This document shows, in pieces, positions 1 to 16,614 of a DNA stretch of 16,614 nt. Source of the DNA: a virus (Duplodnaviria; Heunggongvirae; Uroviricota; Caudoviricetes); IMG/VR virus record IMGVR_UViG_2778261297_000002. One strand, written 5' to 3'. A model generated the notes under the pieces. The model was not told the origin of the DNA. It made no database searches and saw only the letters and a program-made list of their open reading frames with translations. The stretch's first letter is position 1. The number at the start of each line of letters is the position of its first letter. Made by a program: the position numbers and the translations under genes.

Positions 1-1227
1 ATGGCGGGCACTAACAAGCTAAGTGATAAAAAGCTCAAGGCACTCCAGGGGGCCAGCCGTGATGCGCCAGAAATGTATGCAGATGGTGAAGGTTTAAGCG
101 TCAGGGCATCAAAACAGGGTCAACTGAGTTGGGTATTCTCGTACCGGTTGGGTGGAAGGGGTAGCAAACTCGAACGTTTAACGCTTGGCCGTTACCCTGA
201 TTTGTCGCTAAAAGCTGCGAGAGAAAAGCGGGAAAAGTGTCGTCAGTGGCTGGCTGGTGGTCTTGATCCAAAAACAGAGCTTGAACTGAGCACCGAAGAA
301 ACGCTTAAACCTGTGACAGTACAGGATGCTCTCGAATACTGGCTGGTGAATTACGCCAGGAGAAAGCGCAGTGATGAGGAGCTGGTAAGGGCACAGCTAC
401 GCAAGCATATTTACCCGCGCCTTGGTCGTTATCCGCTCACCAGATGTGAAACCCGCCATTGGGTGGCCTGTTTTGATGAAATAAACCTGACCAAACCCAT
501 GACCGCCGGCCGCATGTTTCAGATTTCTAAACAGGCGTTACGTTTCTGCAAGGTTCGCCGCTATGCCGCCAGTGATGCTCTTGCCTTTCTTACCATTCAG
601 GATGTAGGCCAGCCATCCGGCCAACGTGACCGCGTATTGTCAGATAGCGAGCTGGCTGATGTGTGGCGCTCCACAGACAGCGATGATCAGCAGCCTTACT
701 ATTCACGTCTTCTCAAAATGCTAGTGCTGTTTGGTGCACGAACGATGGAGGTTCGCCTCTCTCGATGGTCAGAGTGGGATTTTTCCTCATGGATTTGGAC
801 AGTACCGAAAGAGCACAGCAAAACTCGCGAGAAAATAGTTAGATCGATACCTGAAGCAATACGTCCGTGGCTGGAAGAGTTAAAACGCGAGACAGGCAAA
901 ACGGGACTACTGCTGGGAGAAGATCGCACCCGTCAGGCTGTATCATTGAAAGGGCGCAGGCTTTATAAAGATTTCCACCATAACGAGCCTTGGACGCTTC
1001 ACGATCTGCGTCGCACGTTCTCCACGGGGTTAAACAATATGGGTATAGCACCACATATTGTAGAGCTGCTGCTGGGTCATGCCCTACCGGGCGTCATGGC
1101 TATTTATAACCGTAGCCTGTACTTGCCGGAGAAGCTCGATGCTCTGAACAAATGGTATGACCGCTTAGAACTTCTTGCGGGTAATCATCAAAATGTGGTT
1201 CTGTTATCTGTAACGAATAGAAATTAA
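1..1227 (+). CDS. int: Tyrosine recombinase / phage integrase (P4-type)
   Basis: 408-aa ORF with C-terminal tyrosine-recombinase signature (HDLRRTFSTG ... LLGH ... Y); TAA stop at 1225-1227; position at element edge. Confidence 0.9.
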   Translation: MAGTNKLSDKKLKALQGASRDAPEMYADGEGLSVRASKQGQLSWVFSYRLGGRGSKLERLTLGRYPDLSLKAAREKREKCRQWLAGGLDPKTELELSTEETLKPVTVQDALEYWLVNYARRKRSDEELVRAQLRKHIYPRLGRYPLTRCETRHWVACFDEINLTKPMTAGRMFQISKQALRFCKVRRYAASDALAFLTIQDVGQPSGQRDRVLSDSELADVWRSTDSDDQQPYYSRLLKMLVLFGARTMEVRLSRWSEWDFSSWIWTVPKEHSKTREKIVRSIPEAIRPWLEELKRETGKTGLLLGEDRTRQAVSLKGRRLYKDFHHNEPWTLHDLRRTFSTGLNNMGIAPHIVELLLGHALPGVMAIYNRSLYLPEKLDALNKWYDRLELLAGNHQNVVLLSVTNRN

Positions 1228-1319
1228 AATGATATTGCGGGTCTAGGTCGGCCAACCGAAAAGCGGGATACCCTACCCGTCTGGCCCGCAAATTATTTAG
1301 GGGCGTTGAGGGTGACGGT

Positions 1320-2144
1320 ATGGGTATGCCATTGCGTGAGTATTATCCTATAACTCGAGCGGCTAGTTTATTAGGATATGAAACGAATGATCTTTTACAC
1401 TGGGCCTCTATTGGTTCAATACGATTATTCATTAATTTCGACGTAACCAACATAACAAAAGGGTATGTTGTATTCACAGATGAAGGCCTTTCTTTGAGAA
1501 CGAAATTAATTGAAAAAGGTATCGTTTCTGATTGGTTTTCGAGGGTTTATAATTTAAAAAATATTAGGGATATTAACAGCCCAGACCCTAAAATAAATTA
1601 TGATGGAAGTGAGCTTATTTTAAAGGATGCATTGGAATGTGGGTTTAGTGGCTTTTGGCAACTACCTAAAACATTCTTTGGATTGACCGAGCTTTATGAT
1701 ATTCATCCTCAATTCTTCCAGGTGTGGATGTCAGTATCGAACAAGATGATAGTTAACTTTAATAGTGAGGAACCTATTGATTTTGATTTGGCTGATATTT
1801 ATCTCATGAAAAATGACTTTATCATGTTAAGAGATAGTAGAGATGGTGAGTCATTACCTAGTTTTTATAATGGCGGTGTATTACCTCCTGATACTGAAGT
1901 TTCAACAGTCGCGCTAAATCCAGGGAGGGCAGAACATCATGCAAAAAAGAGAGAGGAAGTATTAAAAGCTGCCATTTATATTAAAAACCACCACCCCGAA
2001 CTGTGTGATAATTATACTAACTGGGCTAATGCTATTAGTGACCATGCTCATAAATTTTGGCGCAGTGGTGAAGCACCCTTATCAATTAAAACGATTGCAG
2101 CATTAATTGGTGAGGCTCATAGGCTACCAACACCATCATCGTAA
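1320..2144 (+). CDS. Hypothetical protein, AT-rich cargo gene (274 aa), no recognisable motif
   Basis: Uninterrupted ORF with GAGG 8 nt upstream of ATG. Sampled lines are about one-third G+C versus about half in flanking genes. A hairpin terminator follows. Confidence 0.6.
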   Translation: MGMPLREYYPITRAASLLGYETNDLLHWASIGSIRLFINFDVTNITKGYVVFTDEGLSLRTKLIEKGIVSDWFSRVYNLKNIRDINSPDPKINYDGSELILKDALECGFSGFWQLPKTFFGLTELYDIHPQFFQVWMSVSNKMIVNFNSEEPIDFDLADIYLMKNDFIMLRDSRDGESLPSFYNGGVLPPDTEVSTVALNPGRAEHHAKKREEVLKAAIYIKNHHPELCDNYTNWANAISDHAHKFWRSGEAPLSIKTIAALIGEAHRLPTPSS

Positions 2145-2172
2145 GTAGGTTCCCGACTTAGCTTAATGTCTC

Positions 2173-2200
2173 CCCGAGTTATGCTAACTCGGGTTTCAAT
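2173..2200 (+). terminator. Putative rho-independent terminator after the AT-rich gene
   Basis: Inverted repeat CCCGAGTT-atgct-AACTCGGG followed by TTTCAAT. Confidence 0.4.
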
Positions 2201-2284
2201 ACCAAGAAATATGCATCAAGATTCTCCAAACAACGCCAGAACAGATAGGAGGTGTTCCTTCTGAGAGCGTTAACTGGAGGGTTT

Positions 2285-2569
2285 ATGCTAAATACTGTTT
2301 TCATCCCACCAACGGCTGAGCAGCGCCGCCAAATTCTTAGGGACTACGGATTTGAATATGACCGACGTATTCGTGAGGCCGAATGCTTGGAAATAACTAG
2401 TCTTTCCCGCTCTACCCGCTGGAATATGGAAAATGATAGTAAGTTTCCCACCCGCTGCCACTTTGGGCGTAACAGCTGCGCATGGCTCCTATCTGACATT
2501 CTTTGGTGGGTTCGTAATCCGCCTTCAGTGTTAAACGTAAATAACCCGCACAGCCGCAAGTCTGCATAA
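2285..2569 (+). CDS. alpA: AlpA-family phage transcriptional regulator / excision activator (HTH)
   Basis: Motif pattern ...LEITSLSRSTRWNMENDSKFP...W typical of AlpA-type regulators; GGAGG just upstream of ATG 2285. The six-frame ORF starts at GTG 2252, so the start is ambiguous. Confidence 0.7.
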   Translation: MLNTVFIPPTAEQRRQILRDYGFEYDRRIREAECLEITSLSRSTRWNMENDSKFPTRCHFGRNSCAWLLSDILWWVRNPPSVLNVNNPHSRKSA

Positions 2570-2685
2570 ACAGTTTAGATAAGATCATTACTGAGCATTT
2601 GTTGCGTGCTGTTGCGTTAGTTATACAGCAGTATTGCTAACGCTGTCGCGGCGGCTCTCAATGTGAATATATTGGAGCACTGAAA

Positions 2686-3498
2686 ATGGTATCGAAAAAA
2701 ATTACTACCTTAACTGGTAGCGGCCAAACTCAATCTGAAATCAGCCTAGAGGATATTTCTGGTAATAATTTTGCTGCGCGAATTCCTGTAACCCTGAGCA
2801 ATATCGGCGGGAAAGAAACTCAGTCTGTAAGCGGCCGTAAGCTGCATACGTTTCTGGCTGTAGGGCGTGACTTTACCAACTGGAGCAAAGGGCGCATCAA
2901 GCAGTACGGGTTCGTCGAAGGGATTGATTATATGATTGTCGAATATTTGACCTCGCCAAAACGGGCGAGCTCAAAATCTCGCCAGCGTATTGAGCATGAC
3001 TACATTGTCAGCCTGAATATGGCTAAAGAGCTTTCTATGGTTGAGCGCAACGCGCAAGGCAAGATGGCTCGTCAGTACTTCATCGACTGCGAAGAACGCC
3101 TGCGCCGGGTCGCCCCTGAAGAACATGAGGCGGCGTTGCTGACATGGCGTAAAAATCGTGTAGCAGCTTGCGAAGATCACAAAAGCATGGCCGAGGCGAT
3201 GAAGGGCTATATCGAACGCACTGGAGATAAGCAGCACGGCTTTGCCTACAGCAATGAATGCACCTTCCTCAATAGCCTTGCGCTGGGTATGCACCCGCGA
3301 GCATGGGCGAAACAGAAAGAAATTCCGGTAAAGCAGGTACGCGACCACATGAACACTGAACAACTGGCGCTGCTGGCCTATCTGGAAAGCCGTAACTGCG
3401 CTCTGCTGGATCTGGATACCAGTACGGCAACCCGCAAGACGAAACTCACTGAACTGGCGCAACGTTGGCTGGTTAAAAGAGTGGGAGGTACAGCATGA
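2686..3498 (+). CDS. Phage antirepressor, AntA/AntB-like
   Basis: 270 aa. N-terminal LHTFLAVGRDFTNWSKGRIKQYGFVEGIDY and central SLNMAKELSMVERNAQGKMARQYFIDCE resemble the AntA/AntB antirepressor family; GGAG 8 nt upstream of ATG. Confidence 0.7.
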   Translation: MVSKKITTLTGSGQTQSEISLEDISGNNFAARIPVTLSNIGGKETQSVSGRKLHTFLAVGRDFTNWSKGRIKQYGFVEGIDYMIVEYLTSPKRASSKSRQRIEHDYIVSLNMAKELSMVERNAQGKMARQYFIDCEERLRRVAPEEHEAALLTWRKNRVAACEDHKSMAEAMKGYIERTGDKQHGFAYSNECTFLNSLALGMHPRAWAKQKEIPVKQVRDHMNTEQLALLAYLESRNCALLDLDTSTATRKTKLTELAQRWLVKRVGGTA

Positions 3499-3802
3499 TC
3501 GCGGATAAAACAAAGGCAGCTTTGCAGAGCTGCCTATGTCACTACGAAAAACCGAAACAGATTAAGCATACTAGGGTTAATGCTGATGGTCAAAACTTCA
3601 CCCAACTCAATTTTGAGGGCGCTGATTTTATTGGTTTTTTTAGCCAGCGCAATTCTGCGCCCACTGATTTTACTCAGCTTTTATGGCAGAGCCCAAAAGT
3701 GAGCTTTGCGTATAACTCATTGATTCCCGCATTCTTCCTCACTTTTGGGAAAAAGGGCGGGAAATCAAACCCTACCCTGTGCTTTCTGTTTCTTCAGTCT
3801 GA

Positions 3803-3916
3803 TTACCGTGTTAGCCAAATAAGGGCTTTAACAATCCAGTATGTGGAATACGCAGTTGCAACTAAAAAAACAATAGCGATTGCGTCTCGCCATTTACCCC
3901 GTTCCGTATCAGGCAT
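3803..3916 (-). CDS. Small hydrophobic peptide (37 aa, one predicted TM helix); kil/toxin-like candidate
   Basis: Hand translation of minus strand: MPDTERGKWRDAIAIVFLVATAYSTYWIVKALIWLTR. GAGGA 7 nt upstream; start lies 3 nt after the preceding stop. Below the ORF-track length cut-off. Confidence 0.35.
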   Translation of the reverse strand: MPDTERGKWRDAIAIVFLVATAYSTYWIVKALIWLTR

Positions 3917-3919
3917 AAA

Positions 3920-4057
3920 TCATTCCTCTGGATCTGCCTTAGCTTTTTTGCGCTGGTCTTCCTTGAGCTTTTTGAGAAATGATTCCAGCGGGAATTGCAT
4001 TGACTTAGCTTTTGGTTCTGCTTCGACGGGTTGCGAATTCTTCTGCTCTTTTGTCAT
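3920..4057 (-). CDS. Small lysine-rich protein (45 aa), unknown function
   Basis: Hand translation: MTKEQKNSQPVEAEPKAKSMQFPLESFLKKLKEDQRKKAKADPEE. AAGGG 7 nt upstream; start 3 nt after the stop of the upstream ORF. Confidence 0.35.
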   Translation of the reverse strand: MTKEQKNSQPVEAEPKAKSMQFPLESFLKKLKEDQRKKAKADPEE

Positions 4058-4060
4058 GTG

Positions 4061-4240
4061 TCAGCCCTTAGGCTCAATGCCGCGCTGCTGTAGTTCTTTG
4101 CGGATGATGCGCTTGATCCAAGCAGCCAGTGATTCGTCGCCATCCTGTTGTTGTGCTTGTTCCATTAGCTCACGTAGCTCGGGATCTAATCTGAACTGGA
4201 ATGGAGGATTACCACGTCTTTCATTTTTGTGTGTTGACAC
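4061..4240 (-). CDS. Ribbon-helix-helix (Arc/CopG-like) DNA-binding protein, candidate repressor
   Basis: Hand translation: (V)STHKNERRGNPPFQFRLDPELRELMEQAQQQDGDESLAAWIKRIIRKELQQRGIEPKG, a beta-strand then two helices as in RHH regulators. Start uncertain (GTG 4240 or internal ATG 4165); several rare codons. Confidence 0.45.
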   Translation of the reverse strand: MSTHKNERRGNPPFQFRLDPELRELMEQAQQQDGDESLAAWIKRIIRKELQQRGIEPKG

Positions 4241-4288
4241 GTTAATTACACCCGATGTAATGTGTTTATGTGTAATGACACATTACAT
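4231..4288. promoter_or_regulatory. Divergent promoter/operator region between the RHH gene and the primase operon
   Basis: TTGACA (4233-4238) with TAATGT about 18 bp downstream on the plus strand. TGTAATGTGT (4256-4265) and the inverted repeat TGTAATG-aca-CATTACA (4271-4287). Confidence 0.45.
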
Positions 4289-4370
4289 ACAAGAAAGACA
4301 AATAGCAACGCCCCGGAGTGCGGGAACACTACCGAGGCGTCTAACCAAACCGTTATACGAGGTAACAGTT

Positions 4371-4640
4371 ATGGCTGGATCACAGCATACCCAAACTCGC
4401 CCGGAATTTACATGGTTATTCCTGGCAACCCCCGATCACACTCCTGAATGCACACCAGTAGTGCTTCGCTTTGATGCTGATACGGAAGATAAAGCCCGCG
4501 CTGCTTTTCCCGGCTGGGATTTAGTTTTTGCCGCCAAAATCCGTGCTCAGGCTCCTTGCCGCGTTGCCTTCTTCGATTACACCACCCGCCGTGGCTGGGA
4601 GTTCGACAGTGCCGCGATTCAGGAGGTGCGTCATGCGTAA
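4371..4640 (+). CDS. Icd-like / Ash-family small phage protein (89 aa)
   Basis: MAGSQHTQTRPEFTWLFLATPDHTPEC...FPGWDLVFAAKIRAQAPCRVAFFDYT...VRHA resembles Icd-like proteins of P4-type islands (from memory, not searched). ACGAGG upstream; first gene of the coupled operon. Confidence 0.55.
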   Translation: MAGSQHTQTRPEFTWLFLATPDHTPECTPVVLRFDADTEDKARAAFPGWDLVFAAKIRAQAPCRVAFFDYTTRRGWEFDSAAIQEVRHA

Positions 4641-5855: not shown

Positions 5856-7987
5856 TGAAGATGAAAAACGCCCCAAACATTAAGTGTCTGCCAAAGGACA
5901 AGTTTACTGAGGCGATTATTTTTGCGGGGGAAGATGCTTATTCACACGCGCAGCACTGGATCGAGAGCGAGGGGAAAAGGGCGGGGGATGATGTGCCGCC
6001 TGTGTATCTGGGGAAAAAGCAGCTGGAGGAGCTTGAAAGGCTGAATATCATCGATCAGGGGCGTCGTTGCGTACGCGTGATTAGAGCTGGCGAGCTTTCC
6101 GAAATGCAGATAAGCACTATCGCAACCAAACTGGCGCTGGCGGATGTGAAAGAGGCCCGGCTGTTTAATGGCATGTTTGAGCCTCAGCCGAAGGAGAACT
6201 GGACGGATGTACTTCCACGGCTCAGGGAAGATGCCGAGCGTGGGGAAAGTATTGTGGTAAATCTGCCTGTGAAAAAAAGGGAGCCAAAGCCTGAACCGGG
6301 TGATGAACTGAAACCCCGCGTAGAGAGCCGTAACGATGGCCTGTACTGGATCACGCCAAAGGTGGATAAGGACAGCGGAGAAATAATCAATAACGAAACG
6401 TGGCTGTGTTCGCCGCTTGAGGTGGTGGGGTCCGGTAGTGACGGGGCCGAGCGCTATCTCGTTTTGCGCTGGCGTTCGCCACGTGGCCATGAAGATATTA
6501 CCAGGGCGATCCCCTGTGCTGATATCGGTGAGCGTGACGGCTGGCGCTCTCTAAAGGCTGGTGGGGTAAACGTAACGACTAAAAGTACATTCCGGGCAAT
6601 TCTTGCCGACTGGCTACAGCAATGTGGTGCAGGGCAGGAATGGATTATTAGCCATACCACCGGCTGGCATCACGGCGCATACATCATGCCAGATGGTGAA
6701 GTTATCGGTGATCCGGAAATGCCTATTCTCTTTAACGGTCGCAGCGCTGCATCTTCCGGTTATGCCGTGGCTGGAACTGCTGAGAGTTGGCGGGATTCAG
6801 TGGCATATCTGGCAGGAGGCAACCCATCGATGATGCTGGGTGTGGCTGCGGCATTGTCTGCGCCGCTGATCGGGCTGGTGGGCGCTGATGGCTTCGGCGT
6901 CCATTTGTTCGAACAGTCCAGCGCCGGTAAGACTACCACCGCAAATATTGCGAGCAGTATTTGGGGCGAGCCCGACGCTTTGAGGTTGACCTGGTACGGT
7001 ACCGCGCTTGGTATTGCTAACGAGGCAGAGGCGCATAACGACAGCCTGTTACCACTTGATGAGGTAGGGCAGGGCAGCAGTGCTAAAGATGTCGCCACGT
7101 CTGCTTACACTTTGTTTAACGGGGCTGGGAAGTTGCAGGGGGCTAAAGAGGGTGGCAACCGGGAGCTAAAGCGCTGGCGAACTGTTGCGATCAGTACCGG
7201 GGAAATGGATATTGAAACATTCCTGGCTGCTGGTGGAATTAGGGTGAAAGCTGGGCAGCTGGTGCGCCTGCTGAATATCCCCATGGAGAAATCCACGGCC
7301 TTTAACGGGCTGGCTAACGGAAAGGCCCACGCCGATGCACTGAAAGAGTCATGGATTGATAACCACGGCGCAGCAGGGCGTGAGTGGGTAAAATGGCTGG
7401 CAACCCACCAGCAGGAGGCTAAACAGGCTGTGCGGGATGCGCAGACGCGCTGGCGCAGTCTTATTCCGGCTGATTATGGTGAACAGGTTCATCGTGTGGC
7501 TGAGCGCTTCGCCATTCTTGAGGCTGCGCTGGTAACTGGTTCGCCGATAACTGGCTGGAGTGAACAAGCCAGCCGGGATGCTATTCAGCATAGCTTCAAT
7601 GCCTGGGTAAAAGAATTCGGAACAGGTAACAAGGAGCACCAGCAGATCATCGAGCAGTGCGAGGCCTTTCTGAACGCGCATGGTATGAGCCGCTATGCTC
7701 CGCTGCCATACTGCCCGTCAGATATGCCAATTCGTGATATGGCTGGATACCGCGAAAGGGGCAAGCATGATGATTCGCCGATGGTGTTTTATACCTTCCC
7801 TTCTGCGTTCGAAAAAGAGATAGCGCAGGGGTTCAATGCGAAGCAGTTCGCCAGAGTTCTGTCTGAATCTGGAATGTTGACACCCCCAGCAAGCGGCAGG
7901 GGATACCAGCGGAAATCACCGCGTATCGATGGGCGTCAGATTAATGTTTACGTCATTCAGTACCAGCAGGAGGGAACCGAAGAATAA
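5855..7987 (+). CDS. Phage/satellite primase-helicase-like replication protein (P4 alpha-like, P-loop NTPase)
   Basis: 710 aa; Walker A-like FEQSSAGKTTTANIASSIWG in the central region; TGATG overlap with the upstream gene; followed directly by the iteron array. Confidence 0.8.
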   Translation: MKMKNAPNIKCLPKDKFTEAIIFAGEDAYSHAQHWIESEGKRAGDDVPPVYLGKKQLEELERLNIIDQGRRCVRVIRAGELSEMQISTIATKLALADVKEARLFNGMFEPQPKENWTDVLPRLREDAERGESIVVNLPVKKREPKPEPGDELKPRVESRNDGLYWITPKVDKDSGEIINNETWLCSPLEVVGSGSDGAERYLVLRWRSPRGHEDITRAIPCADIGERDGWRSLKAGGVNVTTKSTFRAILADWLQQCGAGQEWIISHTTGWHHGAYIMPDGEVIGDPEMPILFNGRSAASSGYAVAGTAESWRDSVAYLAGGNPSMMLGVAAALSAPLIGLVGADGFGVHLFEQSSAGKTTTANIASSIWGEPDALRLTWYGTALGIANEAEAHNDSLLPLDEVGQGSSAKDVATSAYTLFNGAGKLQGAKEGGNRELKRWRTVAISTGEMDIETFLAAGGIRVKAGQLVRLLNIPMEKSTAFNGLANGKAHADALKESWIDNHGAAGREWVKWLATHQQEAKQAVRDAQTRWRSLIPADYGEQVHRVAERFAILEAALVTGSPITGWSEQASRDAIQHSFNAWVKEFGTGNKEHQQIIEQCEAFLNAHGMSRYAPLPYCPSDMPIRDMAGYRERGKHDDSPMVFYTFPSAFEKEIAQGFNAKQFARVLSESGMLTPPASGRGYQRKSPRIDGRQINVYVIQYQQEGTEE

Positions 7988-8007
7988 TTACACGTGAGGT
8001 TTATTTT

Positions 8008-8296
8008 GTTGGTTCAGTTGGTTCAGTAGGTAGTGTGTATCGTTATCGTGGTGTTTATATTGATTATTTTACACAGAAACTGAACCAACACTGAACCAAC
8101 AAATGACTGTTTTGAACCAACAAACGGGGGATTTGAACCAACATACCTACCCTGCCCGAATAAGTGTTTTTACTGAACCAACATAAAAACGGCGTTGTTG
8201 GTTCAAAACGGGGCTTTGTTGGTTCACTAAATAAAAATAAGTCTTTTAAAAACAATGTTCTTTACAAATTGAACCAACTGAACCAACTGAACCAAC
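8008..8296. repeat. Replication-origin-like iteron array
   Basis: 12 copies of the 9-mer TGAACCAAC: 8 forward (8081, 8092, 8113, 8134, 8174, 8270, 8279, 8288) and 4 inverted (8008, 8017, 8198, 8218), with an AT-rich stretch at about 8227-8269. Confidence 0.8.
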
Positions 8297-8333
8297 ATAG
8301 TTTTGTTTATATACGCAGAAAATGAGGTGAAAA

Positions 8334-8839: not shown

Positions 8840-9500
8840 CTGTCAGGTAGGGATGGATGTTGATCATTACCTGTAATCATTATTCTCCGGCATACCGTTC
8901 GCCTCTTCGCGTAAAGCTGCCAGTCCGTTAGACTCCTCGCCTTTCTGACCAGTTAGAAAAATCCTAGTGGTTAACATCTGTTGAATAAAACAGCAAAAAG
9001 GAGTTCACACCTTACGCACTATACAGTGCTACGCCCAAAGCCGCGTTAACGCTGGCTTTCTGGGGTATACACCCCTTGTGCATAAATAGTGAAACTTGTA
9101 TACAAAAATGAGGAAAATCAGCCTGCAAGGCGTACCAGATAAGGGATTTCTGTGTATACAGGTCAGCTAGTTAATAGGCCATTATTGAGCTGAGCACGGC
9201 AAGGCTGTATCGCAGGGCAGCTACACGCTGGCAGGAAGTCATGATGATTTGTGCTGAGGACGATGATCGGGAATGGGTAAAGCAGCGCCGTGAAACGTGT
9301 CTGGAGAACGTGAAGCGCCCGCCAGTGAAAACCGATGATTACGGCGATCTGCATAAAGCAGTCACTGAGACACAACACCGCATGGGGATAGCGCAACCAA
9401 ACGGCAATGCCTTCCGATTAAATGGTGGTAAGAAGCAACGACAGGCCACCAGCGGGGGCGACAGTTCGCAGTAAGGTTCGCACTAAAACGGCTGTAAATT

Positions 9501-9558
9501 CTGGACTGTCCTGGACGGATTTAAAACCCTAGCAGCGCCAGACCCGCGCCAGTAGTGG
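9501..9558. repeat. Conserved bipartite element, copy 1
   Basis: Arms CTGGACTGTCCTGGAC and AGACCCGCGCCAGTAGTGG, start positions 39 bp apart; near-identical copy at 10094-10151. Confidence 0.6.
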
Positions 9559-9686
9559 GCTGGAAGCTAAATCGTGATTCAGGACGTCCTAAATATCTGG
9601 TTAGTTCCACTGGTACGCAGTACGCAGTCAGGTGCGCAGCAAAACCGCGCATTCAGTTAGGGTTTTTGCGCACAGTGAGCCGTTAA

Positions 9687-10064
9687 ATGAAAAAAAATAG
9701 CCAACAATCAAGATCCGGATGGGGTGGCAAGCGGAAAGGCGCAGGCGCACCGTTGGGCAATACTAATGCCGTCAAACATGGCGAACGCAGTAGGCGGGCA
9801 TTCTTCCCGTTTGAGGGGGGCGAGGCGCTTTCTCCGCTGGTGCGAAATCGTGCAAGAAACCTCATGATGGCTGAGAGATACGGGCTATTACTGGCGACTA
9901 ATCCGACGCCGGGAACAGAAGAATGGCGCGAGATGACATTGATTAACGGACTCATGGGGCTACATGCCGACAGAATCGCACGGCTTGAGCTGAGTTTAGC
10001 GAGATCCGTTTCAATGCAAGCAAGGCGGGATCTGCGAAGGGTTAAAAAAAGCGGCGCATGTTAG
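9687..10064 (+). CDS. Basic N-terminus protein, possible terminase small subunit-like / packaging protein (125 aa)
   Basis: N-terminal GWGGKRKGAGAPLGNTNAVKHG Gly/Lys-rich motif reminiscent of some phage TerS N-termini; function unverified. Confidence 0.4.
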   Translation: MKKNSQQSRSGWGGKRKGAGAPLGNTNAVKHGERSRRAFFPFEGGEALSPLVRNRARNLMMAERYGLLLATNPTPGTEEWREMTLINGLMGLHADRIARLELSLARSVSMQARRDLRRVKKSGAC

Positions 10065-10093
10065 CAATCCGTATAGTCACCGATGTTGAAATA

Positions 10094-10151
10094 CTGGACT
10101 GTTCAGGACAGAACCAAAGCCCATATGAGGCGAGACCCGCACCAGTAGTGG
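10094..10151. repeat. Conserved bipartite element, copy 2
   Basis: Arms CTGGACTGTTCAGGAC and AGACCCGCACCAGTAGTGG with the same 39-bp register as copy 1. Confidence 0.6.
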
Positions 10152-10450
10152 ACAGAATCACGGGCGTGATTGAGCGTAAGACGGGGAAAGCAGCCAGAGG
10201 CATTGGCCTGACTCTGTAAAAGCAAAACGCCCGCACGGGCGTCAGGGAACGGGATAGACTTCTGCGACAATTTGCATTCGCCGCCAATATAGCAAGCCGT
10301 CCACATCAAGCAATAAACTATCACCGGGAGGGGGAGGCCAAATCTCTGCAACCCTGAGCCTTAAGGACTGCCCGCCTCATCGAATGTTTATACCCGCGAA
10401 AAATAAAATTTAATCTGGGCGTGTTTCATCCTTCCAGATGGGTATGACGT

Positions 10451-10636
10451 ATGACACCACGCGAAATAGCTTTATTGACCACCGCCAAACTGGAGCACGA
10501 AGGCCACCAGCTAACCCCGGCAGATCAACGGGAGATAGAACGCTCAGTTAATGCCGATATAGCCCGGCGTGACAAATTCCGCGAAATGATGCGATCACCT
10601 GCCTACCAGTGGAAGAAGCCAGCGCCGCGCAGGTAG
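10451..10636 (+). CDS. Small protein (61 aa), paralog of 14520-14711
   Basis: C-terminus MMRSPAYQWKKPAPRR parallels MTAPAYQWKRPDNPRR in the second copy, with similarity across the whole length; weak RBS. Confidence 0.45.
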   Translation: MTPREIALLTTAKLEHEGHQLTPADQREIERSVNADIARRDKFREMMRSPAYQWKKPAPRR

Positions 10637-10756
10637 ATATGGGATTATTCCACATGTAACTTATGCGTATTAAGCAAATTTCCTTTATTCACCTTTACAG
10701 AATTGTGAGTACGTCAGTATCGTTATCCTTCCGATTCGCATTTATTCAGGATTTGC

Positions 10757-11299
10757 ATGTACCAGCTAAAGATAACCATCCGAGACAGCAAGCCACCTAT
10801 ATGGCGGCGTGTGCTGGTTCCAGAGCAAATCCCCTTTAGTGAACTTCACGCGGTGATCCAGTTGGCTTTTGGCTGGAATGACGAACACCTGTATATGTTC
10901 GAGAAAGGGCGTAAAGGTGATCCCGGTAGCGAGTATCGCGTATGGGGTGAGGATGAAAGCATGGGTAATGCGGCAATCACACCACTATGGGCAGCGCTCC
11001 AGAATGAGGGTGACAGGCTGGTTTACACGTATGACTTTGGCGACTGGTGGGATTGCCTTATTGTGCTGGAGAAGCAAACACACGATACGAGCAATCAGCC
11101 CATTAGCTGCCTGCGTGGGAAAGGCACCACCCCGGCGGAAAACTCAGGCGGCTTGCATGGTTACAATGAATTGCTATTACAGGCCAGAGAGTCTGATAAT
11201 CCTGAGCAGGCCGAGATCCACAATTTCCTGATGCTGGATATTGAACGCCGGGTTTACGACCTGAGCCGCATCAACGACAGATTGCAGGCTATTAACTGA
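10757..11299 (+). CDS. pRiA4b ORF-3-like family protein (180 aa)
   Basis: YQLKITIRDSKPPIWRRVLVP...ELHAVIQLAFGWNDEHLYMF...YTYDFGDWWDCLIVLE matches the conserved pattern of that family (recognised from memory). Confidence 0.65.
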   Translation: MYQLKITIRDSKPPIWRRVLVPEQIPFSELHAVIQLAFGWNDEHLYMFEKGRKGDPGSEYRVWGEDESMGNAAITPLWAALQNEGDRLVYTYDFGDWWDCLIVLEKQTHDTSNQPISCLRGKGTTPAENSGGLHGYNELLLQARESDNPEQAEIHNFLMLDIERRVYDLSRINDRLQAIN

Positions 11300-11651
11300 C
11301 CCGCATGTATTCACCTGATATTGCGTTATCAGCGCCGCCACTATCTCGCACAACGGCACACTGTCCCGGTAAACCGTAGCGCACGACCGTTGCGCTGGTT
11401 TCACCGCCGCGCCGTACCTGACGGGATTCATACACTGTCATTCGCTCAAGCAGTCCACCGGCAACCATGCTTTCGAGCGTGCGGCTGGTTGATTCGAGCT
11501 GGTATCGTTTATCGAACGATCCCATGCCGTGAAGCAGGTAGGCCACGCCCGACACATCGAGTGGCGGAGCGCCGATCTCACCCGATACCCACTCGAGGTT
11601 ATCCGGCTCAAAGTAACTGAGTATCTCTTTTTTGCGGTTGGTCATTCTCAT
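11292..11651 (-). CDS. Winged-helix-like DNA-binding regulator, copy A (119 aa)
   Basis: ILSYFEPDNLEWVSGEIGAPPLDVSGVAYLL suggests a MarR/PadR-like wHTH; AAGGAA upstream; palindromic operator just upstream; paralog at 14708-15067. Confidence 0.65.
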   Translation of the reverse strand: MRMTNRKKEILSYFEPDNLEWVSGEIGAPPLDVSGVAYLLHGMGSFDKRYQLESTSRTLESMVAGGLLERMTVYESRQVRRGGETSATVVRYGLPGQCAVVRDSGGADNAISGEYMRVS

Positions 11652-11666
11652 GGCTGGCAGGTTCCT

Positions 11667-11696
11667 TATTGTGGGATAGCACTATCATACAATAAG
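11667..11696. promoter_or_regulatory. Imperfect 30-bp palindrome, putative operator of regulator A
   Basis: TTATTGTggGATAGcaCTATCatACAATAA, between regulator A and the divergent 11877 operon. Confidence 0.4.
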
Positions 11697-11876
11697 AAGC
11701 GGTGAGGAATGGCTACTTAACTTTCCCCTCCATTTTGTAACGCAATCAGTACCCCCTCATGTAGTCCGCAACTCTTTTAATTAAAATATTTTATCTTGAC
11801 GATTTATTTTATTGATCATAAGTTAACCCCATACAGAAGAAGTATGTACGTTTAACCAGTATCAGGAGGTCAGGAA

Positions 11877-12053
11877 ATGGCAGTCACTAACAAAAAGCCG
11901 ATTCTTGTTGATCAGCCGATTCTCGAAGGGTTACAGCGCCTCCGGGATGATGAATGCCGACGTTCTACCGTAGGCGCAGCCCCAAGCATTCAGGAGCTGG
12001 CGCGTCACCTTTTGCGCCAGGGTATCCACCGGCATGAGGCGGGCAAGAAGTAA
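11877..12053 (+). CDS. Small protein (58 aa), possible RHH-like regulator; first gene of four-gene operon
   Basis: AGGAGG at 11864-11869. Sequence MAVTNKKPILVDQPILEGLQRLRDDECRRSTVGAAPSIQELARHLLRQGIHRHEAGKK has a strand-helix-helix pattern. TTGACG-type promoter candidate at about 11796-11825. Confidence 0.45.
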   Translation: MAVTNKKPILVDQPILEGLQRLRDDECRRSTVGAAPSIQELARHLLRQGIHRHEAGKK

Positions 12054-12079
12054 CTCTGCTGCCCGGAAAGGAGAAACCA

Positions 12080-12856
12080 ATGCCGTTAATGAAATTACCC
12101 ACATGGGCGCTAACAGCGTTCGGTACGAAAGGTAAGAAAAAACAGCCCCAACTATCTGAGGAAAACCCATCCATGTTTGATTTCTCGCATCTGTCAGGCA
12201 AAACCAAAACGAAAGGCGAGTCCGATAACGGTAATGAGCCACTGAAACAGGATAGTGACGATATTCAGGTATATCGCCCAAACAAGCACAGTCGTGGTCA
12301 CAATGTCGCGGTGTCTACTGAGGCTAAGAACAACCCGGTTCTGGCTGTTCGTTTGCTGAAAGAAACAAAGCTTTCATCGAAGAAAATAAAGCAGCAACTG
12401 GCATCGTCGCCGATGGCGCTTTCTGTGTTTACCCAGAAATTTATGGAAGAGAACGATCCGACCTGGGAGTTTCAGGACGACGAAGAGAAAGCCCGAACGG
12501 CGCTGATGTTTTCAACGCAGAACCGTGACGCAAATGGTTACAGCGCTGCCCAGAGTAGCGCTATCAAGGCATTGAAAAAAATGGAAGAGCCTCTGACAGA
12601 GGATGAGGTCAAGGCATTAGCCAACATGACATTGAAGATGCAAAACGAGTACGACCCGATGTCACCTGACAATGTCAATGCTCGCCGCATAGCGGATGAG
12701 GAGTACCGGGAGGAAGTGGCACAGGCCACAGCACGCCGCAATGATCGTATCCGGGCATCTGGTGTGAGCCTGCCGGGAGATACCCGTCGCGTGAATGGCA
12801 AGATTGAAGGGCCAGCAGGCGAAGCCGAACGCCTTAAATCACAGGTTTCTCTCTGA
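12080..12856 (+). CDS. Hypothetical protein (258 aa), paralog of 12865-13359
   Basis: AAGGAG 7 nt upstream. Shares EAKNNPVLAVRLL and DPTWEF...DANGYSAAQSSAIKALKKMEEPLTEDEV with the downstream gene. Confidence 0.7.
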   Translation: MPLMKLPTWALTAFGTKGKKKQPQLSEENPSMFDFSHLSGKTKTKGESDNGNEPLKQDSDDIQVYRPNKHSRGHNVAVSTEAKNNPVLAVRLLKETKLSSKKIKQQLASSPMALSVFTQKFMEENDPTWEFQDDEEKARTALMFSTQNRDANGYSAAQSSAIKALKKMEEPLTEDEVKALANMTLKMQNEYDPMSPDNVNARRIADEEYREEVAQATARRNDRIRASGVSLPGDTRRVNGKIEGPAGEAERLKSQVSL

Positions 12857-12864
12857 GAGGTGCG

Positions 12865-13359
12865 GTGGTGAGCATTATGAACTTTCAGCATCTCAATCCG
12901 CCGCAGCCCGATGCGCAGGCATATGGCTTTTCCGGGCGCCGTATGCAGCGCATGCATCGACTTCAGCAGTCTGTTGAAGACGAGCAACCCCCTGAACGTC
13001 GCCATTCTGATGCACATCTGATCGCGGTGAGAAAAGAGGCCAAACAAAACCCGATACAGGCACTTCATCTTATCGCTGAAGGGATACCACACCAGCGTGC
13101 CATCGCCTTACTGCAGGGCAGCGTTCGGCAGCTCAGTCGTTTTACCCGTCGGGCCATGGAGAAAGCCTATCCTGGCTGGGAACTCCTTGATGCCGAAGAC
13201 CAGAACATGGCGGCATTCCAGCACAGCATGATTAACGGCGACACCAACGGCTATCGGGCTGGTTTTAACGCTGCTCTGTCGGCGCTGGAGAAGTTTGTAG
13301 AGCCAGTTACGTTTGACGATATCGTGAATAGCGTTAATTCGCTGGTGGAGGAAGTATGA
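12865..13359 (+). CDS. Hypothetical protein (about 160 aa), paralog of 12080-12856
   Basis: EAKQNPIQALHLI and YPGWEL...DTNGYRAGFNAALSALEKFVEPVTFDDI parallel the upstream gene. Start ambiguous (GTG 12865, GTG 12868 or ATG 12877). Confidence 0.65.
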   Translation: MVSIMNFQHLNPPQPDAQAYGFSGRRMQRMHRLQQSVEDEQPPERRHSDAHLIAVRKEAKQNPIQALHLIAEGIPHQRAIALLQGSVRQLSRFTRRAMEKAYPGWELLDAEDQNMAAFQHSMINGDTNGYRAGFNAALSALEKFVEPVTFDDIVNSVNSLVEEV

Positions 13360-13535
13360 GTAATTCATTCGATTTTGAGCTGGTTGCTGATGACAGGGCC
13401 AGTGCTGCCATTGACGACATTAATGAGGCTATTCGCAATCTTGGACCGCATCTGGAGAAGACGCGGGAAAGCCTCAGGCTGGGCGGCCTTCCGCCGTCGC
13501 CTTACAAAAATGGGTCCTTCCTGAGCCTTTTGTAA
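13356..13535 (+). CDS. Small acidic protein (59 aa), last gene of operon
   Basis: ATGA overlap with the upstream stop at 13356-13359; hand translation MSNSFDFELVADDRASAAIDDINEAIRNLGPHLEKTRESLRLGGLPPSPYKNGSFLSLL. Confidence 0.4.
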   Translation: MSNSFDFELVADDRASAAIDDINEAIRNLGPHLEKTRESLRLGGLPPSPYKNGSFLSLL

Positions 13536-13586
13536 GGCACGGGCATTGCGCGCCGCGGTGTTTTCCTAGCTACAGGTTTTGAATTT

Positions 13587-13792
13587 GATTGACACTTTAC
13601 ACTAAGGTTTTTCCGGTTGCTGGGTTGTTAACTCCCTTGAGCGGCAAGGGATTACCGGGAATAACCGCCGATCCTGATTGACAGTTAGATTGACACTTTC
13701 TGCCTGAAAAGTGTCAACCGGACAGAAAAAGTGTCAAGTAGCTGGCGCTTTACAGTTTGATTGACAGTTTCCCGCCGGTGGGTTGACACATT
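13587..13792. repeat. Array of 7 TTGACA(C/G) motifs in both orientations upstream of the 13826 gene
   Basis: Forward copies at 13589, 13678, 13690, 13761, 13783; inverted at 13711 and 13731. Includes the palindrome TTGACACTTT-ctgcctg-AAAGTGTCAA. Confidence 0.6.
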
Positions 13793-13825
13793 GCCTGCCA
13801 ATGATAATTACCCAGGAGAAAAAAT

Positions 13826-14413
13826 ATGTCGCTGATGAGTGTGAGTCAGTACGCTAAACACGCAGGGCTAAGTCGTCAGGCCCTCTACAACTGGGAGGCT
13901 AAGCAAGGTTTCCCCGCACGAGTGGACGGCAAGATTGACCAACTGGCCTGTGATGCCTACCTGGCCCGATACCGCAGCGCCAGTGACCCGCGCACGAAGA
14001 ATGCCAGGGGGAAAACCAAATCTGCTCCAGCCGGTCAGGCGCAGGGGAGTGCGCTGGTGGAAATGAGTGTTGCGGAGATTAAGCGCATCATAGTGTCAGG
14101 TGCCGGTAAGGTGGCCGGGATGGATCCGGACGAACGAGCCCAACTGGCTGCAAAGGCCGTAGAGCTGTTTGTAAGCGAAGGGCCTTATAACCCTCCTGTA
14201 ACGTTCGGCGGCTACCGGCTGTCGATTGTTGAAACGCCAGATGTTGAAATCGGGCAGATCATCGCGGGCGGCGCGTTCGGCCTGTCTGCATATGATGTGA
14301 TTTACGAGTGCCGGGATTACACCCTGACTCTCATGAGCGATGAAACCGAAGAAACAGCCATGCGGAGAGTGATCCCTTCGTTGCTGTATGCCCTGGCCGA
14401 CGATACCGACTAA
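13826..14413 (+). CDS. HTH-containing protein (195 aa), N-terminal MerR/Nu1-like helix-turn-helix
   Basis: N-terminus SVSQYAKHAGLSRQALYNWEAKQGFP looks like a phage HTH; AGGAG 7 nt upstream; strong terminator downstream. Confidence 0.65.
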   Translation: MSLMSVSQYAKHAGLSRQALYNWEAKQGFPARVDGKIDQLACDAYLARYRSASDPRTKNARGKTKSAPAGQAQGSALVEMSVAEIKRIIVSGAGKVAGMDPDERAQLAAKAVELFVSEGPYNPPVTFGGYRLSIVETPDVEIGQIIAGGAFGLSAYDVIYECRDYTLTLMSDETEETAMRRVIPSLLYALADDTD

Positions 14414-14443
14414 AGCAAAGTGTGCCAGCGGGCTCCTGTTATT

Positions 14444-14469
14444 CCAGCCCTCCGGGGCTGGCTTTTTAT
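14444..14469 (+). terminator. Rho-independent terminator
   Basis: CCAGCCC-tccg-GGGCTGG followed by CTTTTTAT. Confidence 0.65.
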
Positions 14470-14519
14470 AACGATGCTCAGGGCGTAGCCGGTGAGCCTA
14501 TAGAGCAGGAAGATATAGC

Positions 14520-14711
14520 GTGTTAAAACAGAAGAAAATCGAGGCGGTAATTGAAGAGCTGGCCCGCCTGCAGGGGAATGAGCTGAATGCCACCGATATG
14601 CTGGAGTTACGTTGCAGGGTTGCGGGAACGCTCGTTGCTAAAGAACGGCACCGCCGGAGGATGACGGCACCAGCCTACCAGTGGAAGAGGCCAGATAATC
14701 CACGTCGTTAA
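14520..14711 (+). CDS. Small protein (63 aa), paralog of 10451-10636
   Basis: GTG start with AGGA 8 nt upstream; shares the C-terminal PAYQWK(K/R)P...PRR motif; stop overlaps the convergent regulator B. Confidence 0.45.
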   Translation: MLKQKKIEAVIEELARLQGNELNATDMLELRCRVAGTLVAKERHRRRMTAPAYQWKRPDNPRR

Positions 14712-15067
14712 ACGACCCGCACATATTCGCCTTCTATCGTGCCGTCTGCACCTCCCGTATCGCGTACCACTGAAACGGTACCCGGCAGGCCGTAACGGAC
14801 AACGGTAGCGGTCGTCTCGCCGCCCATAACGATACTCCGCGCCTCCCTGCTCCGGTACCTCTCCAGCAACCCATCTTTCACCATTGCTTCCAGCGTTCGT
14901 CTGGTGGATTCGAGCCAGTGCCGGTTGTCTTCGAGGCCTGTCCCATACAGCAGGTACGCCACGCCGGATACATCAAGGGGAGGTGCGCCGATCTCACCCG
15001 TCACCCAGTCGCGGTTATCCGGTTCGAAGTAGCTGAGTATCGTCTTTTTGCGGCTGGTTAGTCTCAT
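14708..15067 (-). CDS. Winged-helix-like DNA-binding regulator, copy B (119 aa from ATG 15067)
   Basis: MRLTSRKKTILSYFEPDNRDWVTGEIGAPPLDVSGVAYLL aligns along its length with copy A; AAGGA upstream of ATG 15067 (the six-frame ORF extends to 15103). Confidence 0.65.
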   Translation of the reverse strand: MRLTSRKKTILSYFEPDNRDWVTGEIGAPPLDVSGVAYLLYGTGLEDNRHWLESTRRTLEAMVKDGLLERYRSREARSIVMGGETTATVVRYGLPGTVSVVRDTGGADGTIEGEYVRVV

Positions 15068-15080
15068 AGTGGGAGATTCC

Positions 15081-15106
15081 TTATTGTATGACAGTGCTAT
15101 CATACA
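15081..15106. promoter_or_regulatory. Palindromic putative operator of regulator B
   Basis: TTATTGTATGAcagtgcTATCATACA with arms TGTATGA / TCATACA; same position relative to the start as operator A. Confidence 0.4.
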
Positions 15107-15320
15107 TTAGTAATTCATGACAATCCGCCGTCATGGCTGGTGGTCACAGTCATGATAAATGTGCTCAGCCCATTCCCGGTTGAGTATGGGGGACGCATTC
15201 AACATCGAGGCATTTATAACTAATTGATGGTTATGTTTATGGAATTTGATGTTTTATAGCAGTAGGATGAAATCGCATAGACTATGCACAGCTATTACTC
15301 TGGATATACAAGGAATTTAT

Positions 15321-15860
15321 ATGTCATTAGCTAACAAAATGAAACTACAAGATCTTAAAGCAAAAATTGAAGAATTCAGCGCTCCTCGGCGCGAGTTGTT
15401 GAATAAACAAATAAATGATGCTGCTACTGCTATTCAGAAAGATGTTTTGGAATTTTTTAAATCTAAAGGATTTACAATTACAGGCCAGACTCCTAAGTTG
15501 AAAGCCACTTATAACGGCGGCCTTGATACTCTCATTGATTTCTCAAAACTCACAGGAAGCTTCTTTGGTTGTGATGGTGCAGTTGAGTTCAAATATGAAA
15601 ATAAAGAATTTTCGCTTAATTACTCTATAAAACGTGGAAAGTCCCCGGAGCGTAATTCTTGGGCTGGTAGGCCTGATGAAATGCTACTAAAAGAAATTGA
15701 GTTCTATGAGAAAGAATTATTGCCGTATTTAGAGTCAACTGGTGTTTCAGACCTAAGCGGCGAGGTGGTTTTGTTCTCAATGGTTAAAAACGCAACAGGT
15801 AAACCAACTACGCAGAAGTATGAAAGTGTTGAGCAAGCACTGAACAGCCTCATGGATTAA
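15321..15860 (+). CDS. Hypothetical protein (179 aa), AT-rich cargo gene at the right edge
   Basis: AGGAA 5 nt upstream of ATG 15321 (ORF track extends to 15246); sampled lines about 27-38 percent G+C; terminator follows. Confidence 0.6.
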   Translation: MSLANKMKLQDLKAKIEEFSAPRRELLNKQINDAATAIQKDVLEFFKSKGFTITGQTPKLKATYNGGLDTLIDFSKLTGSFFGCDGAVEFKYENKEFSLNYSIKRGKSPERNSWAGRPDEMLLKEIEFYEKELLPYLESTGVSDLSGEVVLFSMVKNATGKPTTQKYESVEQALNSLMD

Positions 15861-15868
15861 ATGTCTGC

Positions 15869-15905
15869 ACCATGCCTGCAATCGTAAGCAGGCATGGTAT
15901 TCATT
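15869..15905 (+). terminator. Hairpin terminator / possible element boundary
   Basis: ACCATGCCTGC-aatcgtaa-GCAGGCATGGT followed by ATTCATT. Confidence 0.5.
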
Positions 15906-16077
15906 ACCCCTACAATATTTCCTTGCTATAATCCCCAGCTCTTTGGAATGTGCTCATGCTTATGCGTGATTTCGGCTCTGTGCGATAATCCGTATATCAA
16001 TCGGTGTATCAATATTTACTGAATTGCATAGTGTGAGATTGAATTTAACTGATTAAAATCAGTGAGATATATAGATT

Positions 16078-16614
16078 ATGAAACATATTGTAGAAGTAAT
16101 GATCCCCGAAGCGGAGATTAAAGCGCGTATCGCCGAACTGGGTCGTCAGATTACTGAGCGTTACAAAGACAGCGGCAGCGATATGGTGCTGGTGGGTCTG
16201 CTGCGTGGCTCATTTATGTTTATGGCGGACCTGTGCCGTGAAGTTCAGGTATCTCATGAAGTCGACTTTATGACCGCCTCCAGCTACGGTAGCGGCATGT
16301 CCACCACCCGTGATGTGAAAATCCTCAAAGATCTGGATGAAGATATCCGTGGCAAGGACGTGCTGATTGTTGAAGATATCATCGACTCGGGGAATACACT
16401 GTCGAAAGTGCGTGAGATCTTAAGCCTGCGCGAACCGAAGTCGTTGGCGATTTGTACGCTGCTGGATAAACCGTCCCGTCGTGAAGTGAACGTCCCGGTT
16501 GAATTTATCGGTTTCTCGATCCCGGATGAGTTTGTGGTGGGTTACGGCATTGATTACGCACAGCGTTACCGTCATCTGCCGTATATCGGCAAAGTGATTC
16601 TGCTGGACGAGTAA
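16078..16614 (+). CDS. hpt: Hypoxanthine phosphoribosyltransferase
   Basis: 178 aa, near-identical by recall to enterobacterial Hpt ([32 protein letters not shown] ... [18 protein letters not shown]-binding motif); normal composition. Confidence 0.95.

Follow-up and report, generated by a model that had tools for sequence, protein, structure and literature searches.

Two related modules in an EcCIMP1-type island

The DNA analyzed here, IMG/VR virus record IMGVR_UViG_2778261297_000002 (16,614 nucleotides in full, hereafter the window), carries two copies of a module in which a short gene for a protein with a PAYQWK motif (small) converges with a gene for a 119-aa winged-helix protein of an unnamed family (reg), the latter being preceded by a palindrome. 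In copy A, smallA (10451–10636, + strand; 61 aa) is separated from regA (11292–11651, − strand) by a gene of the pRiA4b ORF-3 family (10757–11299, + strand; PF07929, E = 1.8e-42), which has its own promoter-like site (10694–10723) and whose stop codon is overlapped by regA by 8 bp. In copy B, smallB (14520–14711, + strand; 63 aa, GTG start) overlaps the stop codon of regB (14708–15067, − strand) by 4 bp, so that nothing lies between the two genes. The palindromes are found at 11665–11696 (palindrome A) and 15080–15111 (palindrome B). A previous reading of this DNA from its letters alone (the sequence-only reading) had delineated the same five open reading frames (ORFs), including the pRiA4b ORF-3-like gene that splits the pair in copy A. 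The window is identical in sequence to the chromosome of Escherichia coli EC09, where NCBI's Prokaryotic Genome Annotation Pipeline (PGAP) calls all five as coding sequences.

The window is an EcCIMP1-type phage-inducible chromosomal island (PICI) integrated between gcd and hpt. Its gene set comprises int, an AlpA-like helix-turn-helix (HTH) gene, AntA/B, an Icd-like gene, a DUF927 primase gene and PerC, and a 19-bp direct repeat, the attachment (att) site, bounds it on both sides. The attR core, TATCAATCGGTGTATCAAT, a direct repeat of attL, lies at 15995–16013, which places the right island end 65 bp upstream of hpt. An integrase, an AlpA-type regulator, a primase, PerC, a length of 10–20 kb and att repeats are the features that characterize EcCIMP1-type PICIs, and the island has no virion structural or lysis module, the sole structural-like item being a 59-aa remnant of a tape-measure protein. 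It is thus gene content and att repeats that point to a PICI; mobilization by a helper is known for EcCIMP1.

Two conserved protein families

Pairwise alignment confirmed that the two copies are related in each of their parts. SmallA and smallB share 17 of 46 aligned residues (37%; E = 5e-10), PAYQWK included, and the two palindromes resemble each other; RegA and RegB are identical at 83 of 118 positions (70%; E = 2e-60). The nucleotide divergence between the reg genes (dN 0.27, dS approximately 2) identifies them as old xenologues and not as the products of a recent duplication.

The small family comprises proteins of 61 to 66 aa in 68 clusters from Enterobacterales, which share the motif R..M.AP.Y.WKKP.PRR and have evolved under purifying selection (median dN/dS 0.35). 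The small ORFs, which the sequence-only reading had named as a point of refutation should they prove not to be translated, are therefore genuine genes. Scans against Pfam, NCBIfam, PHROGs and PADLOC returned no named family for these proteins, only PHROGs families without an assigned function (phrog_7271 for smallA), and sequence and profile searches of the PDB yielded nothing useful and no solved relative. The small gene, smallA being the last conserved gene of its operon, closes a rightward operon, 3' of the genes for the primase and PerC. It occupies the same terminal position in a capsid-forming PICI, where reg is absent, and is likewise present without reg in the second module of strain 2022CK-00450.

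Reg is under stronger constraint, with a median dN/dS of 0.15 across its family. No family was reached above threshold in the Pfam, NCBIfam, PHROGs or PADLOC scans, and sequence and profile searches of the PDB gave no match. Its relatives form 467 clusters at 90% identity, of which those with a source name are without exception "hypothetical protein" and from Enterobacterales. A profile search of 1.84 billion representative proteins retrieved 92 members (representatives at 50% identity), many of them fragments, and a fold search of BFVD returned a single homologue, probably from a Klebsiella phage, whose gene lies in the early region there. A homologue of reg is present in 504 of 5426 E. coli genomes (approximately 9%).

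A first AlphaFold2 (AF2) model of Reg, built on a shallow alignment, was poor (predicted local distance difference test score, pLDDT, of 52). With a second alignment, enriched with distant members from the search of 1.84 billion proteins, the pLDDT rose to 76.5, with residues 1–70 mostly at 81–91 per 10-residue block and the hairpin at 66–77. The model has helices at residues 5–12, 16–26, 33–46 and 49–64, followed by a hairpin of strands 69–78 and 84–93, and so provides the three-helix bundle, recognition helix and beta-hairpin wing of a winged-helix protein. The invariant residues include L52, E53, S54, R57, T58 and L59, within the helix that precedes the hairpin, as well as R91, Y92, G93, L94 and G96, within or just past the second hairpin strand. 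Distant members match winged-helix Pfam families below threshold only, a single one of them matching AbiEi_4 (E = 0.055), and no MarR/ArsR family profile was reached above its curated threshold. The description of Reg as a winged-helix regulator consequently stands at the level of the modeled fold, and does not extend to membership in a named family. One distant member of 200 aa, P0253, carries a C-terminal T5orf172/MUG113 (GIY-YIG-like) nuclease domain, a fusion from which it follows that the Reg-type domain also serves as a DNA-targeting module.

A palindrome that accompanies reg

On the reg strand, palindrome A reads CTTATTGTATGATAG-TG-CTATCCCACAATAAG and is followed by AAGGAA and the regA start codon (ATG), while palindrome B is a B-type variant with the core TGTATGAcAGTGCTaTCATACA at 15085–15106. 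Related palindromes before both regulators had been noted in the sequence-only reading, and they proved to be slightly wider than drawn there; the sites 11667–11696 and 15080–15109 are 87% complementary to each other. Within the window, the half-site TTGTRKGATAG is confined to these two palindromes.

The region upstream of each full-length reg gene was examined at approximately 65 loci taken from species genomes and IMG/VR. At every one of them, from E. coli to Proteus, the consensus CTTATTGTAkGATAGnnCTATCCyACAwTAAGGAA was found 7–9 nt 5' of the ATG, with 15 invariant columns, and the DNA immediately outside it is unrelated between loci. The expected number of chance occurrences of this 35-nt consensus is 0. 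An exact-pattern scan of IMG/VR gave 15 matches, 14 of which immediately precede reg while the fifteenth precedes a reg remnant of four codons, and a scan of 50,697 phage genomes gave none. The palindrome occurs in 441 of the 5426 E. coli genomes, compared to 504 with a reg homologue, and is therefore not a core-genome site. It thus lies, conserved together with the gene, as a dyad at the start of the gene for its presumed ligand, which is the arrangement of an autoregulated repressor.

When targets of Reg in trans were sought, the palindrome was found neither in phages nor in the E. coli core genome nor elsewhere in the window, and in IMG/VR it occurred only before reg. There is thus no support for Reg as a regulator of a helper phage or of alpA, or as an Stl-like master repressor. 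Master repressors of PICIs and Staphylococcus aureus pathogenicity islands (SaPIs) lie beside int, divergent from the main lytic operon and with operators there, which is not the position of Reg.

The two arms do not covary (arm-to-arm score 0.050, compared to 0.054 in shuffles), which indicates that conservation acts on their DNA sequence, with its half-sites and promoter elements, and not on an RNA stem. Promoter-like hexamers can indeed be read in the arms in both directions, TTATTG-16-CACAAT towards reg and TTATTG-16-TACAAT outwards, the outer arm always bearing the outward-facing TACAAT. We therefore propose the palindrome as a putative operator that overlaps divergent promoter elements. 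Two ORFs that run into the palindromes were rejected as coding sequences: a 131-aa extension of regB from an ATG at 15103, which starts inside palindrome B and finds no backing among homologues, and a 58-aa ORF on the + strand (11529–11705). Both yield similar "...IALSYNK..." peptides, an artefact of dyad symmetry.

A variant of this arrangement occurs in an E. coli O157:H7 island at dinD-yicG (genome G5295), where a 128-aa reg gene is preceded by the variant palindrome TTGTATGAGGGATTCATCCTACAA and diverges from two PerC-family genes. The first of these begins 42 nt from the palindrome, downstream of TTGTTG-16-TACAAT, so that its promoter must overlap the palindrome. Judging from this spacing, O157:H7 is the sole clear case in which the outward element must work as a promoter.

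The right island end and its two slots

The small-reg pair is a fixed right-terminal module of EcCIMP1-type PICIs and not a mobile cassette. In many genomes, reg is the last gene of the island, facing inward, next to attR. Beyond it, EcCIMP1 and the islands L013 (Klebsiella), L008 and L009 contain only attR and chromosomal genes; the distance from the palindrome to the att core is 95 bp in L013, a 9.7-kb island at the hpt site, and 158 bp in EcCIMP1. In other genomes, reg is directly flanked by chromosomal genes, which from their translations are yicG/ligB, an SDR/LysR pair or hpt. Accessory cargo of the kind that the sequence-only reading had placed beyond each regulator is missing from the four islands named above, and elsewhere the genes found there point either way.

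Two intervals of variable content are delimited by this module. The first lies between small and reg, which are convergent within 3.7 kb at approximately 49 of 68 loci, with a gap that ranges from 6 bp to 3.6 kb across approximately 50 loci. Its commonest occupant, in 17 of about 50 slots, is the pRiA4b ORF-3 gene. The others, assigned by reading translated sequences, are Panacea-type toxin-antitoxin pairs, an IS256 transposase, integrases, an ImmA/IrrE peptidase with a membrane protein, and a ribbon-helix-helix protein. The second interval, between the palindrome and attR, is either empty or holds genes in either orientation, including integrases, a DUF262 protein (as read from its sequence), insertion sequence (IS) elements and PerC genes. 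In the window it is occupied by an AT-rich gene for a 179-aa protein (15321–15860, + strand; phrog_14564), which holds the same position in E. coli VG1046-3E9 and in Klebsiella quasipneumoniae. A PADLOC scan of the slot occupants of the window found no known defense family, the only matches being weak and partial (DrmD, E = 5.7e-4, for 12080–12856; mad1, E = 1.3e-4, for 13826–14413).

The sequence-only reading had further suggested a search of other satellites for the regulator and small-protein pair flanking variable cargo. Variable DNA does begin exactly at the edge of the palindrome, while the pairing is not obligate: reg occurs without small in O157:H7 and at approximately 19 other loci.

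Decay of reg to a pseudogene is seen in some lineages, namely L050 and L023; one widespread island of K. quasipneumoniae with such a pseudogene keeps the palindrome and the 15321-type gene. In L050, from K. quasipneumoniae (6338–6500 and 9115–9340), reg is cut to 41 codons and a B-type palindrome is retained; at the slot junction, a further piece of small from its 3' end (aa 22–63) lies beside a three-gene insert, which encodes an unannotated 305-aa protein, a DUF4325 protein and a 203-aa protein with a weak PIN match. From its sequence, this arrangement looks like the scar of a cargo exchange through recombination at the 3' end of small.

The tandem modules are a mosaic of two island lineages

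The presence of two modules in the window results from a rare mosaic of two related island lineages that are joined at the edge of a palindrome. Positions 9203–11696 are 82–96% identical to EcCIMP1-like islands, with module A approximately 95% identical to islands at the tRNA-Thr site of EcCIMP1 (L002). Positions 1–4427 (in the blocks 1–1414, 2342–3594 and 3642–4427) and 11713–16614 (in several blocks) are 77–98% identical to the gcd-hpt island of VG1046-3E9. The boundary between these homologies is the outer edge of palindrome A: the EcCIMP1-like one ends at 11696 and the VG1046-3E9-type one starts at 11713, which confines the junction to 11697–11712. The smallB/regB junction (14692/14708) is itself a second breakpoint, at which identity changes from 77.5% on the left to 98.6% on the right.

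VG1046-3E9 has a single module, in the order primase, SSB, 11877-type operon, gene similar to that of a terminase small subunit (TerS-like), small, pRiA4b, reg, 15321-type gene and hpt, and the K. quasipneumoniae islands, also with a single module, are built in the same way. In both, the operon that corresponds to the window ORFs 11877–12053, 12080–12856, 12865–13359 and 13356–13535 (11877–13535, + strand) directly follows the primase, with no palindrome before it, and it is therefore not a cargo gated by regA, as the sequence-only reading had supposed, but the ordinary post-primase operon of sister islands. It is followed in the window by a gene for a 195-aa protein with a terminase-small-subunit-like or excisionase-like HTH N-terminus (13826–14413, + strand; phrog_57, E = 1.9e-9). 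The tandem form was found in only two of the 5426 genomes; in a third, at another integration site, KilA-N takes the place of regB. Tandem "duplicated modules" can thus come from mosaic recombination at a conserved regulatory site, and not from selection for a reusable cassette.

Interpretation of the module and alternatives

Taken together, we consider it probable that the window represents an EcCIMP1-type right-end module with an autoregulated Reg and two slots, present twice through the mosaic of two lineages. The small PAYQWK protein closes the rightward post-replication operon at each island right end, and reg is the last gene, transcribed inward from a promoter region that faces attR. 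A Reg dimer would most likely bind the 32-bp palindrome 7–9 nt 5' of its own start codon and thereby repress its own synthesis; bound there, it would also shut the outward promoter wherever a gene happens to be present. The small-reg and palindrome-attR intervals form two accretion slots bounded by conserved sequence, whose contents are exchanged by recombination among islands. In the window, two lineages were joined at the outer edge of palindrome A: a left part, ending in small, pRiA4b and regA, from an EcCIMP1-like lineage, and a right part, with the 11877 operon, the TerS-like gene, smallB, regB, the 15321 gene and attR, from a VG1046-3E9-like lineage.

Several points weigh against this account. 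The anatomy, conservation, fold and mosaic origin are established, but binding of Reg to DNA, its autoregulation and the promoter assignments are steps that we infer, and the confidence of the AF2 model is only moderate. The −35 hexamers in the palindrome are weak and a consensus promoter scanner called no promoter there, so the assignments rest on manual reading of hexamers. Moreover, a start site set by the inward CACAAT would fall past the conserved AAGGA Shine-Dalgarno sequence, which makes the true reg promoter uncertain. The decay of reg to a pseudogene in some lineages means that its role is dispensable or conditional, and pure autoregulation offers no reason for a satellite to keep the gene.

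In a further-reaching reading, Reg and the palindrome would form a conserved terminal switch of EcCIMP1-type satellites with overlapping back-to-back promoters, with Reg setting outward transcription into the 3' slot, into the host gene next to attR and, after excision, across attP into int, and with small and this switch defining two bounded hotspots in approximately 8–9% of E. coli genomes. We regard this extension as tentative and, on balance, unlikely. If it were true, the two hotspots could be mined for anti-phage genes, with the pRiA4b ORF-3 protein as the first candidate.

According to the sequence-only reading, the regulator and its palindrome, together with small, form a portable, reusable cassette that switches divergent accessory cargo on and off. 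The palindrome is indeed a dedicated and conserved partner of reg, homology between islands ends exactly at its outer edge with different DNA beyond, TACAAT faces outward throughout, and at about two-thirds of the loci the closest ORF upstream likewise reads outward; the short distance to PerC in O157:H7 fits as well. However, there is often no island gene beyond reg to be switched, and in L009, L020 and L021 the neighboring gene points towards reg. The 11877 operon, as read from its sequence, has its own promoter-like site approximately 100 bp away and lacks a palindrome in its usual place after the primase; the 15321-type gene persists beside a reg pseudogene; and small lies on the far side of reg and is also found without it. 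The pair being the fixed right end of these PICIs, we think a portable cassette improbable, while throttling of outward transcription by Reg where a gene is present may be the kernel of truth in the gating idea.

It is more doubtful still that Reg serves as a life-cycle regulator at the island junction, either controlling int from the outward promoter, as does Pcirc of ICEclc, or acting as an architectural or directionality factor. Once the island is excised as a circle, the palindrome would sit 95–160 bp from attP, facing int, as the distances in the minimal islands L013 and EcCIMP1 show. Reg is the terminal gene in many genomes, and the int gene of the window starts only 30 nt past the attL core, which leaves no room for a promoter of its own. 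Against this, palindrome B is 0.9 kb from attR, with a gene and, as read from the sequence, a hairpin (15871–15897) in between, and the distance grows to approximately 5 kb in L002. A separate extended −10 element adjoins attR, and widespread islands carry reg as a pseudogene. Directionality factors, furthermore, usually bind direct repeats in the att arms.

We find it very unlikely that small and Reg are a functional pair, be it a toxin and antitoxin, a repressor and anti-repressor, or a switch based on convergent transcription, whose matched partners the duplication would have kept. They are convergent at most loci, A-type small accompanies A-type reg and B-type small B-type reg in the window and in L013, and the 4-bp overlap in copy B means that the transcripts must overlap there. 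This matching of types is confounded by linkage, though, and each gene occurs alone, small in the capsid-forming PICI and in 2022CK-00450 and reg in O157:H7 among others; where both are present, unrelated genes may separate them. A type II or type IV toxin-antitoxin pair with an AbiEi-like Reg was rejected, as the genes are convergent, unlike those of a toxin-antitoxin operon, with a variable gap. Finally, the palindrome as an RNA hairpin in the reg leader, acting in translational control or termination, is hardly credible and was rejected: the last letters of its 3' arm are the AAG of the AAGGA Shine-Dalgarno sequence, which a stem would partly mask, but the arms lack compensatory covariation, 4 of 15 positions are commonly unpaired, changes in a single arm are unmatched, and the loop is just 2 nt long, with no U-run after it in either direction.

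Further features of the island

Several elements outside the modules were observed. An int-alpA RNA motif (Rfam RF02996, 60.8 bits, E = 9.8e-11) lies at 1236–1303 (+ strand), directly 3' of the integrase gene. Densely arrayed TGAACCAAC iterons, some direct and some inverted, lie shortly past the DUF927 primase gene (8000–8310) and are probably the replication origin of the island. An intergenic element of approximately 130 nt is present twice in the window, after PerC (9496–9627) and after a 125-aa gene (10089–10151), and also twice in the EcCIMP1-like island L002 (10760–10960 and 11522–11732). In the first copy, 20 of the 24 positions in the stretch 9597–9620 complement the DNA that encodes PAYQWK in both small genes. 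This complementarity (approximately 9594–9620) is a probable coincidence, although it may alternatively reflect a protein-binding repeat or RNA pairing.

Within the 11877 operon, the 59-aa ORF 13356–13535 is the N-terminal stub of a tape-measure-like protein (phrog_2276), which is intact with 624 aa in the K. quasipneumoniae islands. The non-coding gap that follows contains three repeats with GATTGACAsTTT (13567–13770), upstream of the TerS-like gene, and a terminator-like hairpin (14444–14461) is found 3' of the latter. At attL, a chromosomal TTGACT-16-TATCAAT, which to judge by its sequence probably served hpt as its native promoter, comes to lie 30 nt 5' of the int start codon (window 15960–16078; L001 1540–1625). 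On the island side of attR, the extended −10 element TGcGATAAT (approximately 15981–15989) faces hpt, so that integration resembles a promoter swap.

Comparison with known systems

The module has so far been annotated as "hypothetical protein", yet it is carried by approximately 9% of complete E. coli genomes, occurs across Enterobacterales, and marks the end of a satellite family for which mobilization has been demonstrated. The Reg family and its operator appear to be undescribed in the searchable literature, and we found no description of small or reg genes in the literature on pRiA4b, EcCIEDL933 and PICI hotspots. A regulator family with a defined operator offers an experimental handle on control of the PICI right end, and the 3' end of small, reg and the palindrome edge are exact anchors for cataloguing accessory and defense genes.

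The closest relative is EcCIMP1 of E. coli MP1, a PICI that is excised and transduced by phage Kapi1 (Pick et al. 2025, PMC11773190). It shares int, AlpA, AntA/B, the Icd-like gene, the DUF927 primase gene and PerC with the island in the window, and ends in small, pRiA4b ORF-3 and reg (− strand) with an identical palindrome; the passages of that article examined here do not discuss these three genes. EcCIMP1 differs in having one module, a tRNA-Thr integration site and no gene past reg, whereas the window island has the gcd-hpt site and a second module.

Mechanistically, the closest class to Reg is that of autoregulated winged-helix repressors of the MarR/ArsR type with palindromic operators. 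Reg differs from these in staying below Pfam and NCBIfam thresholds, in having no PDB sequence match and in lacking an evident ligand or metal site, and it has features of its own in a long wing, a conserved 20-residue C-terminal tail and a small family. The closest analogue of the gating idea is BrxR/CapW, likewise a winged-helix protein with a palindromic operator and changing accessory genes nearby. BrxR/CapW proteins combine the winged helix with a WYL domain and are encoded upstream of a defense operon. Reg, in contrast, has 119 aa without a WYL sensor domain or a PADLOC match, is neither co-directional with nor upstream of a defined defense operon, and often has no cargo at all beyond it.

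As in the 3'-end accessory (immune) region of PICIs, as outlined in PMC11364771 (citing Fillol-Salom et al. 2022), and in the hotspots of P2 and P4 (Rousset et al. 2022, PMC9122126), variable and defense-like genes gather at the right end between conserved genes. What sets the present islands apart is that exact boundaries, namely the 3' end of small, reg and the palindrome edge, make two slots. The module is thus a landmark for PICI ends and their hotspots and not a new type of system.

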